56,711 bases of DNA from Candidatus Pacearchaeota archaeon (GTDB taxonomy: Archaea; Nanobdellota; Nanobdellia; Pacearchaeales; GW2011-AR1), in NCBI GenBank assembly GCA_018303755.1, contig JAGVXO010000009.1, positions 1-56,711 of the forward strand, given 5' to 3'. Shown here in pieces: positions 4,677 to 29,056 of the stretch. The first letter of the stretch is position 1; every line of letters begins with the position of its first letter. The notes under the pieces were generated by a model, which did no database searches, was not told the DNA's origin, and saw only the letters and a program-made list of their open reading frames with translations. Made by a program: the position numbers and the translations under genes.

Positions 4677-4839
4677 GGGTTTAAAAGAATTAAAGTGTAT
4701 TTAAAGTTTGTTCTCAATACATTGCAGGGCATCAGGGAGGCTATTAAGATATTATAATCTAAATTTTTGAAAATTGACTTAACCAATTTAATATTAATAA
4801 TCAATGTTTTATTTTTGTCTAATAATCACTTATCGGATA

Positions 4840-12724: not shown

Positions 12725-13075
12725 TTCTTTTTCCTTATTTTACGCCATTTCAATTCTCTTTTTCCTTATTTTACATTAAATATAAATTAAAACATATAAA
12801 TAAAGCATATAAAAATAGATGTATCAAGCGGATTAAGAATTTGCAAAATAGAACAGGCGCGAAGCGCACCATCTTAAGTAAGGCGAGCGAACAGAAGGTG
12901 AGCGAGCATAAATACTTATTTTAATTATTTTGCTAACCTCCCATAACTTTCCCTTATCTTATGTTTGATTATTGGTGCTTTTTCTATTTTATCTTGATAT
13001 AAATAAATAACAAAGAGCCAATGTACCAATGGTTAGCAGATTTGCAGAATAAACAGGCGAGCCGCAACGAGCAAA
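12725..13075 (+). repeat. Modular intergenic repeat family, two tandem units
   Basis: ttttccttattt...gattaagaatttgcaaaatagaacaggcgcgaagcg, then gctaacctcccataactttcccttat...ccaatgtacc..ttagcagatttgcagaataaacaggcgagc. Confidence 0.8.
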
Positions 13076-22343: not shown

Positions 22344-23951
22344 TTATCTTCTGCCTTTCTTTGCTTTCATCAAATAAGCAATTAAACCAATAAGGATTAT
22401 AACTGCAATTATCCCAACTATTGTCCATAGGGTTGTGCTACTTGTTCCTTCAGCACCTGTTTCTGGTGTTCCTTCATCTTCAGTTGTTCCATTGCTTACT
22501 GCTCCAGTCTCTCCAGCACCAATACTTTCTGAAATCTTTTTAACTGTAACATCTGCCTTTCCATTTGCAATGCTATTAAGTTTTACTGATAAGTCATATG
22601 TTCCATCATTATTTATATCAACTTTTTTTGTTTCTCCAGTACTCAAGTCAAGAGTTATTGGGTCTGAAGATATTGTAATTGTGACTTTATTTGTTGTTAT
22701 TGCTGTTACAGCAACTGTATGCGCTTCAGATACTGTTGCTCCCGATGGCTTTATTGAAACACTTATCTTAGAATTTTCATTGAAATTTGCACTATATCCA
22801 CTCGAAACTTGAGTTTCAGTTACTGAAACTGTGCTTCCTGCTGCAATTGTAGGAGTTGTAGTTGTGCTTCCACCACTACCTCCACTACTTCCCCCTGTAC
22901 TACTTCCAACTCCTTCTACAGTATAAGTTCCTGTAATAGTTACTATATTTCCTGCAATGTCATAAGCCGTGCATACTGAGTTGTAAGTTCCTGTATTTGA
23001 AGTTGAAGGACTTGCAGTTATAGATGTTGAGTTTAGTCCTGCAACACTATCACTTGCACTGCATGTGCATGTAGCTGTATCATCTTGGTTAACTGGATTC
23101 GGGGTGCAACTTACACTTCCTGTTGGTCCTGTATTATCAAGTATAAAATTTAATACTGCCCCAGTATTATTAAGATTGCCTCCTGTATCATTCGCCCATA
23201 CAGTTATGTTATACCTCCCATCAGCCCATGCAGAGGTATTTATAGATATATTCCAGTATTCTCCTGCAGGATTTGAAGCATAAAGTATAGTCGAGTTATG
23301 CTGTGCTCCTGTTGAATTAGTTATATTAAAAAATACTGTTTCTATTTTTGAAAGTCCGCGAGCATCATGAATTGAAACATTTAGTAATAAGTATCCTGTA
23401 TTTGCATTTGAATAATTATATAAGGTAACAGGAGAAGTAATATTCGCAGAGTTAATTAAGGGTACTGTGCTGTCAATTTTGAATGTTTTATTATTTGCAG
23501 ATTCAACTGTTGCTGACCAATTAGTAATACTAACATTAATCATTGTCCAGTTATCTTGAAAAAGTGCAGTATTGCTTATATTAATATATCCCCAAGCAGC
23601 AAAGTTTGTTGTAGAATTAACAATAGTGAGATTCCCGGTATTATTAAGTCCTTGAACGAAACTCGTACCATTATAAGATAAATTTGCTACCTGAACAAAA
23701 TTTCCTCCTGTCCCGCTTGAATTTACATAGATAGTAATATTCAAATGATCAGCACCATCATTATTAAATACAACATCAGTTAGATTTACAAATGTGATAT
23801 TAATAAAAAGCAATTGCCTTGAAGTAGCATTAAATCCTGTTATCGGACTGACAATAGTAACTGCTGCAGCTGCAAAACTTGCAACAAATATAATAAATAA
23901 TGCTGCAAAAACAGCGCTGACAAAAACATAATTTTGTTTTATTTTAACCAT
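22344..23951 (-). CDS. Cell-surface (S-layer-like/Ig-like) glycoprotein
   Basis: Signal peptide, many N-x-S/T sequons, DGRYNITVWANDTGGN Ig-like motif, G/S/T linker, C-terminal TM and basic tail. Confidence 0.8.
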   Translation of the reverse strand: MVKIKQNYVFVSAVFAALFIIFVASFAAAAVTIVSPITGFNATSRQLLFINITFVNLTDVVFNNDGADHLNITIYVNSSGTGGNFVQVANLSYNGTSFVQGLNNTGNLTIVNSTTNFAAWGYINISNTALFQDNWTMINVSITNWSATVESANNKTFKIDSTVPLINSANITSPVTLYNYSNANTGYLLLNVSIHDARGLSKIETVFFNITNSTGAQHNSTILYASNPAGEYWNISINTSAWADGRYNITVWANDTGGNLNNTGAVLNFILDNTGPTGSVSCTPNPVNQDDTATCTCSASDSVAGLNSTSITASPSTSNTGTYNSVCTAYDIAGNIVTITGTYTVEGVGSSTGGSSGGSGGSTTTTPTIAAGSTVSVTETQVSSGYSANFNENSKISVSIKPSGATVSEAHTVAVTAITTNKVTITISSDPITLDLSTGETKKVDINNDGTYDLSVKLNSIANGKADVTVKKISESIGAGETGAVSNGTTEDEGTPETGAEGTSSTTLWTIVGIIAVIILIGLIAYLMKAKKGRR

Positions 23952-24102: not shown

Positions 24103-25806
24103 TTATTTTTCTATATGCGGATGCTCCTGCCCCTCTTTTAATCTTTCTTTTAAATCTTTTAATTGCTTTTGTTTTTCAATTGAATAATATTTTTTATTTC
24201 CATCTGCTTTTTCTATTAATTTTGCAGTATACTCTCCTCCTAGAAAATGCGGCAGTATTACATAATCTGCTCCTGTTTTATATAAAGAATAGACATCAGA
24301 AATCTGCCTTGCAGTGGTTATTATCACAGCATTTCTGTTTTTTGCGCGTATTTTCTCAATTAGCATCAGATTTATCTCAGCTTCTGGAATTGTTGAGACA
24401 ATCAACTTTGAATTCTTCACGCGAAGATTATCAATAAAATCTGCATTTGATACATCTCCGTAAATGCAGTTTATTCTGTTTGAGCTCAATCTTCTCACTC
24501 TTTCTGGATTAAAATCAATCACAACGTAATTTTTTCTCAGTTTAACAAAAGACTTCATTATTGAAAATCCTATCCTGTTTTCTCCGAGTAAAATATATTC
24601 GTAATCTTTGTTTTCATCTTTTTCCCGCTTTGTTTTTTTGCGCTCGAAAACTGACAGATATTTTGACAATAGAGAATAAATTTTTTCAGAATACATTATC
24701 ATATAGGTCGAGCCAGCAATTGTAATCAAGCCAACAAGTGTTACAAGAGAAAGAATCTCATTTGTAAGATGTCCGACTCTTACTCCAAGTGCAATCAGAA
24801 TAAGAGAGAATTCACTTATTTGCGCAACAGTAAGCCCTGCCATAAATCCCGTGTTTTTGCTGTACCCGAATATTCCCATTAAAATCATCACAATTAAAGG
24901 ATTTCCGACAAGTATGAAAACCGAGAAAACAACAGCAGGAATCCAAAGAGCGGCTAAATTCCCGACAATCATTTGCGCGCCCAATAAAATGAAGAATGAG
25001 ATTATAAAAAAGTCCCTTAATGGCCTTAGTTTTGAGCTGACTTCATAGCTGTAAGGGGATATTGAAAGCATAATGCCTGCAACCAGGGCTCCGACTTCAA
25101 TAGAGAATCCTGCATATAAAAATAAGGCAGATAGTCCTAACCCCCATGAAATCGCGAATAAATAAAGCAACTCCTGGGATTTTGCAAAAAACGAGCTTAA
25201 TCTTGGAAGAACTAAATAACTTATTGGAAGGAGAAAAACGACTATGATTCCTCCCTTTACAAATGTAGAGACAATAATTTCTGAGGCATTTACTCCATTA
25301 GAAAAAGAAGAGACAACGATTAGAATTATAATTGCAATCAAATCCTGCACAAGAAGAAACCCTATTGAAATCTTGCCGAATAATCTGTCAAGGGAATCCT
25401 TATCAGAAAGCAGTTTCATAATAATAATTGTTGATGAGAATGTGAGTGCAACAGCAATATAAGCAGAAGTTACTGGAGAAAAGCCAAGCCAGATTCCGAT
25501 AAAGTAGCCTATTACTGAGGTGAATACCACCTGTCCGATTCCAGTTATCAGAGAGATTTTTCCAACCTCTTTTATTACTTTTGGGCTTAAGTGAATGCCG
25601 ACGATAAAAAGCAGAAAGGCCACCCCAAATTCAGAGAATGTCTGAAGTGTTTCTGTATTTGGAATAAGATTAAGCATTAATGGTCCAACAATAATCCCGG
25701 AAATTATATATCCGATGATAAGCGGCTGCTTAAGCAGCCGCACTATAAAAGAAACTCCTAATACAATCAAGAGTATAATGCTTATCTGCAAAAATATGTT
25801 TTCCAT
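24103..25806 (-). CDS. Kef-type K+/H+ antiporter (CPA2) with C-terminal TrkA-N/RCK domain
   Basis: KQPLIIGYI, FSSTIII.K, LLVQD, QISEFS, IYGDVSN. Confidence 0.92.
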   Translation of the reverse strand: MENIFLQISIILLIVLGVSFIVRLLKQPLIIGYIISGIIVGPLMLNLIPNTETLQTFSEFGVAFLLFIVGIHLSPKVIKEVGKISLITGIGQVVFTSVIGYFIGIWLGFSPVTSAYIAVALTFSSTIIIMKLLSDKDSLDRLFGKISIGFLLVQDLIAIIILIVVSSFSNGVNASEIIVSTFVKGGIIVVFLLPISYLVLPRLSSFFAKSQELLYLFAISWGLGLSALFLYAGFSIEVGALVAGIMLSISPYSYEVSSKLRPLRDFFIISFFILLGAQMIVGNLAALWIPAVVFSVFILVGNPLIVMILMGIFGYSKNTGFMAGLTVAQISEFSLILIALGVRVGHLTNEILSLVTLVGLITIAGSTYMIMYSEKIYSLLSKYLSVFERKKTKREKDENKDYEYILLGENRIGFSIMKSFVKLRKNYVVIDFNPERVRRLSSNRINCIYGDVSNADFIDNLRVKNSKLIVSTIPEAEINLMLIEKIRAKNRNAVIITTARQISDVYSLYKTGADYVILPHFLGGEYTAKLIEKADGNKKYYSIEKQKQLKDLKERLKEGQEHPHIEK

Positions 25807-25987: not shown

Positions 25988-26764
25988 ATGGAAGTTAAGC
26001 ATACTGAAATAGTTGAGAAGAGAGTTCAAGTTGAAGAATTAGTAGGAATAGCTTCTATTATAAAAGCAGATGAATTTATCCCGCAATATACTGAAGGGGT
26101 TGAGAGATTTCTAAGAGATAATCAAAATTTAGGAGAAGAATGGATTAGAAATGTTAAAGAAAAGTTATGTGGATTTCAGGGAAAAAATAAAGATGGAAAT
26201 CTTCTTGGTTCAAGCATAGATATTGGAGTAGCAATAGCAACATTTACAGATATTCCTTTGATTACAGGAAATCAGTTACTTGGGATTTACGAACAAGCAG
26301 GAAAAAAGAATCCTTTTGGAGAGGTTTATGTTGATTTTGGTGTTGCACTTATTGGAGTTCCACAAGTAAATTACGTTAAGGCAACTGAATTATTAGAGGA
26401 TTTTACAAGAAGAGGAATAAACCTTGAAAATGGAAGAGTTCCAGATTTTGCACAATTAAGGTTAATTATGGATAAATGTGTTGGATTATCTTATAAATTA
26501 ACAGAGAATGTTTCCTCAGATGATGTTGCTTTAGTCTCTGCATATCCTTTTGGTTCCTATGTTGGAAATAATGGTTTGTTCAGGGCTTGCCTTGACGGGG
26601 ACGGCAGCTGGTATGCCGATGATGTTGGCTTGGCTGATTCCGACGGCGATGGCAGGGTGGTTCGTTATGACGCCGAAGGCGTCACGCCACGCGTTGCTCC
26701 AAAAAGTAACACTCAAGATTTGATTGCGGGATTAGTAAAAGAATTTACTGATAAATTCGGATAG
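25988..26764 (+). CDS. DGR target (variable) protein, probable CLec-fold C-terminal region
   Basis: Encodes the VR (GLFRACLDGDGSWYADDVGLADSDGDGRVV) matching the TR about 390 bp downstream. Confidence 0.88.
   Translation: MEVKHTEIVEKRVQVEELVGIASIIKADEFIPQYTEGVERFLRDNQNLGEEWIRNVKEKLCGFQGKNKDGNLLGSSIDIGVAIATFTDIPLITGNQLLGIYEQAGKKNPFGEVYVDFGVALIGVPQVNYVKATELLEDFTRRGINLENGRVPDFAQLRLIMDKCVGLSYKLTENVSSDDVALVSAYPFGSYVGNNGLFRACLDGDGSWYADDVGLADSDGDGRVVRYDAEGVTPRVAPKSNTQDLIAGLVKEFTDKFG
26576..26660 (+). repeat. DGR variable repeat (VR)
   Basis: 85-bp ungapped match to 26964-27048 with 15 mismatches, 14 of them at TR adenines. Confidence 0.93.
26668..26684 (+). other. DGR target-recognition hairpin downstream of the VR
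   Basis: tgacgcc-gaa-ggcgtca: perfect 7-bp stem with a GAA loop, 7 bp after the VR. Confidence 0.8.
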
Positions 26765-26793
26765 TTTTTAAGCTAATATTTCTTTTAAATAGT

Positions 26794-27064
26794 CCTAACC
26801 ATTTAGGTTAGGCCACACGCCAATTTACTAAGGCATATTTGACTTTATTTTAAGCCATGAAATTCAAGAGTTCCTTGCGAGGAACTCTGGTGTTCAAGGA
26901 AACTTGATATGTTCAGGCGAAATTCCTGATATGAAGAAATTCATAAGGTAAATTGGCTACAAGTTGTTCAGGGCTTGCCTTAACAGGAACGGCAGCTGGA
27001 ATGCCAATGATGATAACTTGGCTAATTCCAACGACAACGGCAGAATGGCTTAATAATGGTTAGG
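26794..27064 (+). ncRNA. Predicted DGR template RNA (structured 5' domain plus TR)
   Basis: Nested long-range complementarity 26794-803 with 27055-64 and 26850-58 with 27045-53; four short hairpins precede the TR. Confidence 0.6.
26964..27048 (+). repeat. DGR template repeat (TR)
   Basis: Non-coding, AAC/AAT-rich copy of the VR: ttgttcagggcttgccttaacaggaacggcagctggaatgccaat...aacgacaacggcagaatgg. Confidence 0.93.
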
Positions 27065-27139
27065 TTTTATTTCAATTATAAAAATAATTAAATTCCAATA
27101 TTATCAAGTTAATATGCTATACATTATTTGAAATCTGAA

Positions 27140-27435
27140 TTTTTCTAACACATCCTTCTTTTCCCTTATTCAGCATTTTTTATGGGAGTTTTGTTTTAGT
27201 ATCATCAATTAAAAATTCAAAGAACCAAAGCATCAACGAGTTCGCAGATTTGCAAAATAAAAACAGGCGAGGCGAAGCCGAGCACAAATATTTTCTTTAA
27301 ACATCCCAAATTTTGCCTTATTTCCCATCTTTTAATTTGAAATTTAGTTTATTAAAGGTATCAATTAAAAAATAAAATTATCAGTATAAAAAGTGGTTGT
27401 CAGATTTGCAAAATAAACCAGCAAGCAGAGCTGAT
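27140..27435 (+). repeat. Modular intergenic repeat family, two tandem units
   Basis: ctaacacatccttcttttcccttatt...gcagatttgcaaaataaaaacaggcgaggcgaagccgagc, then a second unit ending cagatttgcaaaataaaccagcaagc. Confidence 0.78.
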
Positions 27436-27481
27436 AAGTAAATTTATGTTGATTATTCTTATATGCTAAGTCAATAGTATA

Positions 27482-28222
27482 TCAAATTCCCAAATCATCT
27501 GCGATTTTGTCTCCTGCAATAATTTCAGGAACAGTAACTATTTTTGCCCCTGCTTTTTTCAGTTTTGAAACCAACGACGGCTTTTCGCATCTTGAATGAA
27601 CTTCTATTTTCGGATTCATTTCTTTTGCAGTCAGGGTTATCATAACATTATCTTCTGTATTTGGAGAGGCAATTATCAGTTTTAAGGCTTTTTCAATTCT
27701 CGCTTTTTTCAGCATTTCTTCATTTAATCCACTGCCTTCAATTATCATATATTTTTTCTTTCTCAAAGAAGATGCAACAGCAGGATCAGATTCTATTATT
27801 AAGAAAGGGATTTTTTTGACAGAAATGACTTTTGCTATTTCTTCTCCTACTCTGCCTCCTCCGACAATGATAATATGGTTTTTCATCCTCTTTATTAAAA
27901 ATGAGTAGAATCTTGTTTTTAAATATTTTCTAAGATTTCCATCAAGAAGCATATCCGCAATGCTCCATAAAACCCACCAGATAATAAAAACTCCGACAAT
28001 TGCCAGGAAGATTTCAAGAAGCCTTTCATAAATAGTGCTTTCTTCATTGAATATGAATGCGAGTGTCTGGAGTGTTCTTAGAAAAGAATCTCCAAAAGAA
28101 ATTCCGGTTATTAGTTTAAATCCAAATATTCCTGCGATAAATAAAAGAATCATTATTAAAATGAATATTCTAATCCTTTTTGGAAATTCTTCCACTTCTT
28201 TAACTTCTGCACTTCTTGACAT
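27482..28222 (-). CDS. Potassium-channel-like protein, 2 TM plus TrkA-N (RCK)
   Basis: HIIIVGGGRVG RCK domain; the pore region lacks a canonical TVGYG. Confidence 0.8.
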   Translation of the reverse strand: MSRSAEVKEVEEFPKRIRIFILIMILLFIAGIFGFKLITGISFGDSFLRTLQTLAFIFNEESTIYERLLEIFLAIVGVFIIWWVLWSIADMLLDGNLRKYLKTRFYSFLIKRMKNHIIIVGGGRVGEEIAKVISVKKIPFLIIESDPAVASSLRKKKYMIIEGSGLNEEMLKKARIEKALKLIIASPNTEDNVMITLTAKEMNPKIEVHSRCEKPSLVSKLKKAGAKIVTVPEIIAGDKIADDLGI

Positions 28223-28274
28223 TTTATCTCCCTTTATATAAATCAGAATGTTTGAGTTTAAAAAACCGCGTTTT

Positions 28275-28745
28275 TCAAAATGATTCAATATTTTTTATTA
28301 ATCCCGAAAGAATTTTTGGGGAAATATAGTAACCATCTTCAACAAGGGCATAAATCATTTCCTTGGCTGTTTTTTTATCTATAATCTTCTTTTTTAACAA
28401 AAGGAGAATTACTCCCGTTGTTCTGATATAATCAATATCTAATGATTGTGCAATTTTTATTGCAAAACTATCATCAATGAGCAATTTATCTTTCTTTTCT
28501 TTTGCCAAATTAATTGCAGCATTTTCTCCAGCGCCTATTCCAAAATCAAGATTATTTTTTGGATTTTCTATTTTTATCAATCCCCAGATTATGTATTCAT
28601 TAAGAATAGAATATCCGGGTTTTCCTTCAATAAGCACTTCCTCTTTTACTGCTTCAGGAATAATTATCTGTTTAAACAATTTTATTAAAAGTTCGAGTTT
28701 GTTTAATTTAGCCAAGCAAATAAGGGGAGTTGAATTGCTTATCAT
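28275..28745 (-). CDS. PIN-domain protein (DUF3368 type)
   Basis: ISNSTPLI.L, GAGENAAI.LA, LLIDD. Confidence 0.85.
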   Translation of the reverse strand: MISNSTPLICLAKLNKLELLIKLFKQIIIPEAVKEEVLIEGKPGYSILNEYIIWGLIKIENPKNNLDFGIGAGENAAINLAKEKKDKLLIDDSFAIKIAQSLDIDYIRTTGVILLLLKKKIIDKKTAKEMIYALVEDGYYISPKILSGLIKNIESF

Positions 28746-29056
28746 TTTAGCAGGATTTTTAGATCATGTTCCAATTCTTTTTTATCATATCCTGTCCAAT
28801 TTATGTCATCTTCTTTTGCTATTACCAACATTTCCCATATTGAAACATTTAGTATTCGTGCTGCTTTGCCTATTGATATTTTATTGAGTGATAGCGCCTC
28901 TAATGTTGATTTGAATTTTTCTTCTTCAAGGGCTTTTGCTAATAGTCTTCTCATAACTGCTGAAGTATCAAGGTTCTCTCTTTTTGCCAGGGCTTTTATT
29001 CTTAATACAAACTCTTCAGGAAGTCTTGTTGTTATTGGCTTGTCCATTGTATACAA
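28742..29056 (-). CDS. UPF0175-type antitoxin (RHH plus HTH)
   Basis: ITTRLPEE...ISIGKAARILNVSIWE; 4-bp overlap with the PIN gene. Confidence 0.8.
   Translation of the reverse strand: MYTMDKPITTRLPEEFVLRIKALAKRENLDTSAVMRRLLAKALEEEKFKSTLEALSLNKISIGKAARILNVSIWEMLVIAKEDDINWTGYDKKELEHDLKILLK

Follow-up and report, generated by a model that had tools for sequence, protein, structure and literature searches.

A diversity-generating retroelement cassette without its own reverse transcriptase in a Pacearchaeota-like archaeon, and the case for its service in trans

Introduction

In the canonical diversity-generating retroelement (DGR), that of Bordetella phage BPP-1, a target gene with its variable repeat (VR) is followed by the initiation of mutagenic homing (IMH) site and a hairpin, by avd, by the template repeat (TR) and a spacer RNA, and by the reverse transcriptase (RT) gene brt. 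Here we describe a DGR cassette, consisting of target gene, VR, hairpin, RNA motif and TR, that stands without an RT gene in a 56,711-nt stretch of DNA (contig C17:1-56711, referred to below as the window) from a tiny Pacearchaeota-like DPANN archaeon of groundwater. Like BPP-1, it has a VR that diverges from TR specifically at adenines and lies at the 3′ end of a target gene of the C-type lectin (CLec) type, it has a hairpin after the VR, and its genome encodes an RT of the DGR clade. It is unlike BPP-1 in that the locus itself lacks an RT, the genome has no match to Avd, the RNA motif RT-16 lies 5′ of TR, and a helix closes RT-16 and TR into one unit.

In the sections of Weinberg 2017 (PMC5737381) that present them, the motifs RT-1 to RT-19 are characterized by no more than their proximity to RT genes, and the sole one tied to a DGR is RT-10, which in BPP-1 lies between TR and RT. 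The window copy matches the whole RT-16 model published there (RF03019) above its gathering score. It departs from that description in lying directly 5′ of TR, in occurring also without an RT, and in having a first stem with an alternative long-range partner.

Remote DGR targets and the action of DGR components in trans are established for Treponema, Legionella and Trichodesmium (Wu 2018, PMC5758913). As in those systems, one RT would act here on a VR far from the RT gene. In that paper's treatment of remote targets the TR used is the one beside the RT, and matches belonging to another DGR were excluded; the window cassette, in contrast, has a different TR and an RNA scaffold, both of its own. 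Thiohalocapsa PB-PSB1 has loci with missing or pseudogenised machinery beside one complete locus per class, and the use in trans of an RT and/or TR encoded elsewhere has been considered for them (Dore 2024, PMC10907252). So far as its account of those loci goes, the trans cases are VRs that match the TR of another locus, and for loci that have a TR of their own the explanation given is structural variants in which the RT is intact. In the archaea studied here the evidence is comparative: cassettes that have their own TR but no RT turn up repeatedly in different genera, and one of them persisted through speciation with concerted change of TR and VR.

The literature that we searched, which did not extend to supplements, held no direct description of RT-less, orphan or multiple-TR DGR cassettes, and an earlier report may exist. 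Paul and colleagues are said to have dealt in 2017 with DGRs of CPR and DPANN organisms, the same kind of host, with small CLec targets. What seems new relative to known DGRs is a distant cassette with its own TR and a conserved RNA scaffold, its recurrence throughout a family, and comparative evidence that such cassettes can persist with homing.

An initial annotation, made from the letters of the window alone, proposed either a satellite served in trans by a distant RT or a recent relic. We report the anatomy of the cassette, the deletion that removed its RT, the RT that remains elsewhere in the genome, the recurrence of RT-less cassettes in relatives and the concerted evolution of TR and VR in one RT-less pair. 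Both explanations are retained, and we judge that the window cassette is probably a satellite served in trans.

The cassette is a genuine DGR cassette

VR (26576-26660, forward strand) and TR (26964-27048, forward strand) are both 85 nt long and align without gaps at 82% identity. Fourteen of their 15 mismatches fall on TR adenines, 12 of them as A to G and two as A to T, which reproduces the alignment first reported. The sole mismatch outside adenines is a synonymous C to T change at 26650, in a third codon position (GAC to GAT). The probability of placing at least 14 of 15 mismatches on A by chance is 4e-7 by the binomial and 1.5e-8 by the hypergeometric distribution. The change also has a direction, with 12 positions of TR-A/VR-G against none of TR-G/VR-A. 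TR has 25 adenines, most of them (16) in AAC or AAT codons, as had been noted. Among 38 TR/VR pairs of the clade the changes at adenines are 66-70% A to G, 25-30% A to T and 4% A to C; this strong bias toward A to G accounts for the G-rich VR of the window.

The target gene (25988-26764, forward strand) is an intact open reading frame (ORF) of 258 aa. VR is in frame within it and ends 34 codons before the stop, in agreement with the original estimate. The protein matched no Pfam or NCBIfam family. Fifty homologues were found at E <= 0.001, and the few named ones come from Candidatus Pacearchaeota or Nanoarchaeota archaeon; a search with the protein of public metagenome and genome contig collections returned no relative. 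When 46 homologues were aligned, the high-entropy columns were those of TR codons that contain adenine (N203, R204, N205, S207, N209, N211-N214, N217 and N219-N221), and those of TR codons without adenine were nearly invariant.

A structure prediction, which the initial annotation had recommended, pointed to a CLec-like fold. The AlphaFold2 model (pLDDT 89.3) had no Foldseek match in the PDB at E <= 1e-3. With VIA-align, which is independent of Foldseek, C-type lectin-like domains formed the majority of the top 50 rows, with Z from 5.6 to 7.4 and rmsd of about 3.1-3.7 Å over 110-125 residues. Because these Z values are middling, we consider the predicted CLec-like fold moderately supported.

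The post-VR hairpin TGACGCC-GAA-GGCGTCA was found where it had been annotated, at 26668-26684 on the forward strand. It has a 7-bp stem and a GAA loop, its folding energy as DNA is -11.5 kcal/mol (z -2.8), and it also encodes the conserved residues YDAEGV. With adenine-specific divergence, hairpin, position of VR and CLec-like target all present, the original reading of the locus as a DGR stands.

The single RT of the genome lies on another contig

The genome is a bin of 36 contigs and 769,330 bp, with 81.6% completeness and 0.25% contamination. Searches with RVT_1 gave no match in the window, including the 4 kb around the cassette, so TR has no RT adjacent to it; Avd (PF05635) had no match anywhere in this 81.6%-complete genome. 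The earlier statement that the window holds neither RT nor Avd is thereby confirmed.

The genome has its only RVT_1 match on the minus strand of contig C31 (3-1004). Read on that strand, the beginning of C31 is a complete DGR. Its two targets, of 286 and 236 aa, both possess a VR and a GAA-loop hairpin of the window type, and the DGR further comprises an RT-16 copy, TR, closing helix and RT. Of what the initial annotation had advised looking for, C31 thus holds an RT, a further TR and two further VRs. The C31 TR is 71% identical to that of the window.

DGR RTs are marked by an I/LGxxxSQ motif. The reading frame of the C31 RT stays open over 334 aa, its sole interruption being the contig end, and has the motifs GMPLGNLTSQ and YVDD. 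Among solved structures the best relative is 8ub7_A (328 aa, E 9e-44), listed simply as “Reverse transcriptase”, which we take to be the DGR RT of a Bordetella phage; group II and retron-type RTs matched at E 6e-19 or weaker. Judged by these motifs and matches, it is a DGR-class RT. No ORF lies between TR and RT in the C31 DGR, and an Avd in that position is missing throughout the clade. Since this complete DGR also does without one, the absence of Avd is normal for the clade, which appears to work without that protein.

TR is part of a conserved RNA module

The initial annotation listed target gene, VR, hairpin and TR correctly but overlooked an RNA between VR and TR. This is the RT-16 motif (RF03019), at 26794-26965 on the forward strand and directly 5′ of TR. 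The match covers the full model (1-158) with 67 bits, against a gathering score of 50, and an E value of 2e-9. The second RT-16 copy of the genome (C31:1122-1346, 92 bits) lies ahead of the RT-linked TR.

The first ten nucleotides of the window copy, CCTAACCATT (26794-26803, forward strand), are the 5′ arm of the first RT-16 stem. They are perfectly complementary over 10 bp to AATGGTTAGG (27055-27064, forward strand), which lies 6 nt after TR. Both arms pair in the minimum free energy (MFE) structure of 26790-27070 (z -5.5), where this long-range helix encloses the RT-16 core together with TR. On C31 (L074), TCCTAGCCAT and ATGGCTAGGA form the corresponding 10-bp helix between 1337-1346 and about 1023-1032 of the minus strand, which is likewise in the MFE structure (z -5.4). 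Between window and C31 the helix shows a compensatory A/G-T/C change.

A closing helix of at least 7 Watson-Crick bp was present in 20 of 35 cassettes, compared with 120 of 990 cross-class controls (12%). Its 3′ segment lies 5-15 nt after TR, and the helix covaries through at least four sequence classes (CCTAGCCAT, GTCTTAG, GTCCTG and GCCCAGA). Classes are common to the cassettes in G000, G010, G020 and G007_C30, and not in G001, G034, G037 and G007_C21/C26. We had considered the helix class as a guide to which RT serves which satellite, and dropped it because of these exceptions and because the helix covaries freely. In the Rfam model this 5′ arm belongs to a local hairpin, so that it has two alternative pairings.

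This module bears on one rival explanation, namely that the window target belongs to the C31 DGR as a simple remote target, the nearby “TR” being only an old duplicate. Such targets are well known, at least from the systems treated in Wu 2018 (PMC5758913). However, the window VR matches the adjacent TR at 59 of 60 non-adenine sites and does not show such agreement with the distant TR, which is only 71% identical to the adjacent one. The adjacent TR also has its own RT-16 and closing helix. We regard a simple remote target as the least probable of the explanations considered, with hardly any weight left to it.

The RT of the window was deleted just after TR

The metagenome contig L073 is 72% identical to window positions 26028-27088 and holds target, VR, RT-16, TR and the start of an RT, in this order. 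In G009, too, an RT follows, and window positions 27040-27088 match the G009 junction at 82% identity as far as the fourth RT codon, with homology ending at 27088-27090. The segment 27065-27088 (forward strand), recognized by alignment of orthologues, is the last homology to the junction between TR and RT start, and is the scar of the deleted gene. Because L073 and G009:C27 have an RT after TR and the window keeps only about 25 nt of the junction, the alignments show that the RT of the window was lost by a deletion just after TR, from a complete ancestral DGR. The phrase “minimal satellite cassette” in the initial annotation holds in that the cassette has its own template; it does not hold in the sense of a primarily minimal element, as the cassette is derived from a full DGR.

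It had also been pointed out that a misassembly that removed an adjacent RT would make the locus an ordinary DGR. On this explanation the RT really lies beside the window TR, or the C31 DGR comes from another organism. C31 does begin inside its RT, so that a contig break coincides with a DGR, and the genome is a bin of many contigs. However, in three runs that were assembled independently, TR is followed by this RT-less sequence without a single difference (X6 record 24, 26965-29000; X7 record 32, 26961-29000; X4 record 14, 26970-27865), and this agreement makes misassembly very unlikely. C31, a contig of 56,653 bp, has a GC content of 0.324 compared with 0.327 for C17, the contamination of the bin is low, and a contig whose TR is only 71% identical to that of the window is not its missing continuation. 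An assembly or binning artefact thus has a very slim chance of being correct, and even taken jointly with the simple remote target it remains highly improbable.

Other orthologues of the window cassette show different fates. In G009:C27, L070 and L071, RT-16 is gone: the target continues directly into an unmutated TR-like copy, and the RT comes next; in G009:C27 the TR-like copy before the RT is identical to the window TR at 94 of 101 positions. From the sequences, this state looks like the product of recombination between VR and TR as direct repeats, which would have removed RT-16. Such recombination would be a second way for these DGRs to die. The target genes of L069 (G009:C27), L070 and L071 also have a frame change at residue 57. 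In G010:C2, a VR and a degenerate hairpin are followed by the 5′ half of RT-16 and then by a deletion that reaches to the last ~20 RT codons. Its remains mark this locus as a true relic.

RT-less cassettes are common among relatives

To compare the locus with its relatives, as the initial annotation had advised, we used two samples. The first consisted of 61 related genomes, 26 with RT-16 and 28 with RVT_1, in which we examined 40 of 44 RT-16 copies. TR lay directly after RT-16 in 38 of the 40. One exception, G011_C13, gave only a palindromic self-match and no TR/VR pair; in the other, G010_C1a, VR is cut by the contig start, and the part that can be aligned therefore begins about 30 nt further on. 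Thirteen of the 40 copies had no RT within 3-4 kb (one of them, G037_C2, with an RT stump of 31 aa). The other 27 had an RT, directly downstream in 24 and in another position in three. All 13 RT-less copies had a TR and an adenine-biased VR, and 160 of their 200 mismatches fell on A.

In the second sample each genus of the family was represented by one genome, 151 in all; 59 had RT-16 and 57 RVT_1, and coordinates were matched by eye. About 18 of 87 further RT-16 copies were without a full RT (14 with none and four with N-terminal stumps of 39-102 aa), and five copies at contig ends were left unclassed. By these counts, RT-less cassettes appear to make up roughly a quarter to a third of cassettes across the family.

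In five cassettes an RT stump of 31-102 aa follows an intact RT-16 and TR: L082 (G122:C3), L083 (G064:C9), L092 (G114:C22), L098 (G093:C5) and L039 (G037:C2). Their TRs have 0-2 non-adenine mismatches to their VRs, and they look like intermediate stages of RT loss. In three more, L093 (G114:C3), L097 (G171:C24) and L096 (G159:C55), RT-16 occurs without an RT or a detectable VR in the 4-8 kb fetched; these copies may be templates for remote targets, or may have decayed.

TR and VR evolved in concert in an RT-less pair

G011_C2 and G020_C152 are orthologous RT-less cassettes of two species, with synteny on both sides. In both, the order is a gene for a 635-aa secreted protein, target, RT-16, TR and a gene for a membrane protein (434 and 441 aa), and DNA identity is 63-70%. 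The alignment is continuous from the end of TR into the downstream gene. This unbroken alignment, together with the synteny, indicates that the RT-less state was inherited from their common ancestor.

We compared the columns in which the two TRs differ and neither has A. VR follows the TR of its own genome at 14 of 18 such columns in one cassette and at 17 of 18 in the other. Counted as events, four substitutions and a 15-nt deletion were concerted and two sites were not. With G001_C23 as outgroup, derived states were found in both lineages. Since differences at A only overlie the shared, lineage-specific changes at other bases, the comparison implies RT-mediated homing in trans after the two species split. 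Short-tract DNA gene conversion alone was rejected as an explanation, as it would not recreate adenine-specific differences.

This pair is the strongest single test for homing in trans, and it extends the comparison with relatives: RT-less cassettes with their own TR are common, and at least one lineage kept homing after the loss of its RT. A second candidate pair, G030_C4 and G034_C15b, was set aside because the two have no common downstream genes and cannot show loss by descent.

Satellite or recent relic

We consider that the window locus began as a complete DGR, with target, VR, hairpin, RT-16 RNA, TR and RT, whose own RT was then deleted just after TR. What remained would be a complete template module, with the closing helix around RT-16 scaffold and TR, beside an intact target with its hairpin on the VR side. 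The RNA of this module would be transcribed and bound in trans by the single DGR RT from C31, whose own RNA has the same architecture. It would then be copied into adenine-mutagenised cDNA, with mostly A to G and A to T changes, that replaces VR. We infer that the C31 RT accepts the window RNA and that homing still occurs at the window cassette.

The rival with most weight is that of a recent relic: diversification ended with the RT deletion, the deletion is young, and VR has since been held by purifying selection. Several observations favor a relic and weigh against service in trans. The RT is gone, and the RT on C31 is its paralogue rather than the enzyme cognate to the cassette; the lost RT, of the G009 type, was about 60% identical to it, and the TRs of C31 and the window are 71% identical, so that any cross-recognition would have to span these differences. 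Orthologous cassettes are decaying in G010:C2 and G009:C27. In the VR, no variation was seen either. This was judged from assembled contigs (Logan), in which minor alleles are hidden: those that cover VR, from 4 runs in 3 studies, had 0 differences, and the numerous differences reported at likeness >=80 belong to homologues of other organisms. The exact target protein was present on 20 contigs, and two strain variants with 3-5 substitutions at residues 117-134 had an identical VR. However, the RT-linked C31 targets were equally invariant (31 and 27 contigs), and so VR invariance does not discriminate between the two readings.

The one mismatch between TR and VR outside adenines, in 60 sites, could also be taken as a mark of a relic. 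Comparison with the G009 TR places this change on the VR side. Each RT-linked VR on C31 likewise has one, so that the window VR is as close to its TR as the VRs of the same genome that have an RT beside them.

Non-adenine mismatches between TR and VR served more widely as a clock since the last homing. In the first sample they amounted to 40 of 771 sites in RT-less cassettes, with one of 13 pairs at zero, and to 21 of 1462 sites in RT-linked ones, with 17 of 25 pairs at zero (one-sided Mann-Whitney p 1.6e-4, in genomes that are related and not independent). Five RT-linked loci of this sample gave no VR in the stretch fetched. This excess of drift in RT-less cassettes also favors a relic, but it was not replicated. 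In the second sample the counts were 15 of 591 sites in RT-less cassettes (six of 10 pairs at zero), 5 of 373 in those with RT stumps and 28 of 1084 in RT-linked ones (eight of 18 pairs at zero); no VR was obtained for four RT-less and five control loci. As the second sample shows no difference, we do not regard the excess as robust, and many RT-less cassettes agree with their TR at every non-adenine site.

Two further points argue against a relic. All elements in cis are intact in the window, namely the ORF, the hairpin, an RT-16 above its gathering score and a perfect 10-bp helix, whereas the true relic G010:C2 has a broken hairpin and a broken RT-16. Moreover, an RT-less lineage kept homing after speciation. 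On balance we hold the recent relic to be a possible but rather doubtful explanation, and the satellite served in trans to be the probable one.

RT repeat tracts and a possible split DGR

Ten of 26 RT genes in the clade carried a poly-G (6-12) or (GA)7-13 tract at one site, just before the GMPLGN motif (within GMPLGNLTSQ). Eight of the ten were out of frame and two in frame, and all 16 RT genes without a tract were open. Examples, all outside the window, are L048 (G007:C7, near 4787-4808), L034 (G039:C1) and L011 (G040:C52); the C31 RT has no tract. The pattern looks like ON/OFF phase variation of the DGR RT by slipped-strand mispairing. No description of phase-variable DGR RTs was found in the literature searched.

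More broadly, and tentatively, the DGR of Pacearchaeota-like archaea may be a split, modular system. Helix-closed RT-16/TR modules with their own targets would act as autonomous template satellites, recognized in trans through RT-16 by a single RT elsewhere. A quarter to a third of them would be without an RT, some beyond a speciation, and in many genomes a poly-G or (GA)n tract inside the RT gene would turn the RT on and off. We hold this general picture with less confidence than the reading of the window cassette itself.

If service in trans is true, the unit of a DGR in these archaea is an RNA module of RT-16, TR and closing helix and not the RT gene, and surveys centered on RTs would miss a sizeable share of diversified genes. 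RT-16 would then be likely to carry the recognition signal for the RT, which bears on the reprogramming of DGRs for directed evolution. The orphan Rfam motif RT-16 gains a function and a context, and homing in trans can be tested comparatively, by concerted non-adenine change among RT-less orthologues.

Neighborhood of the cassette

The cassette had been described as lying between two K+ transport genes, which family searches bear out. Upstream, on the minus strand, is a Kef-type cation/H+ antiporter with Na_H_Exchanger and TrkA_N domains (24103-25806); downstream, also on the minus strand, is a membrane protein with a TrkA_N (RCK) domain (27482-28288). Both are outside the DGR. We tried synteny as a means of dating the RT loss, and this K+ gene neighborhood was absent from all relatives fetched. 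The sole orthologue of the TrkA_N gene in the genus, in G015:C116, is 67% identical and has different neighbors.

In place of the RT stand two copies of an intergenic repeat (27204-27261 and 27360-27417, within 27190-27440, forward strand). The repeat-family copies that the initial annotation saw after TR are true members of a genome-wide family, whose 17-nt core CAGATTTGCAAAATAAA has 66 genomic matches at <=2 mismatches. The family had no Rfam match. Its unit is about 100 nt long, a further copy lies at 13037 of the window, and after most copies comes a GC-rich hairpin whose GAA loop is also that of the post-VR hairpins.

Overlapping genes for a PIN-like protein (DUF3368/PIN, 156 aa) and an RHH/UPF0175 protein (104 aa) lie beside the cassette at 28275-29056 on the minus strand and are a probable toxin-antitoxin pair; a PIN homologue also adjoins two G007 cassettes. 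At 22344-23951 on the minus strand, a gene encodes a protein of 535 aa that has a signal or anchor at its N-terminus, a transmembrane segment at its C-terminus and many N-x-S/T sites, and is probably a surface (S-layer-like) protein.

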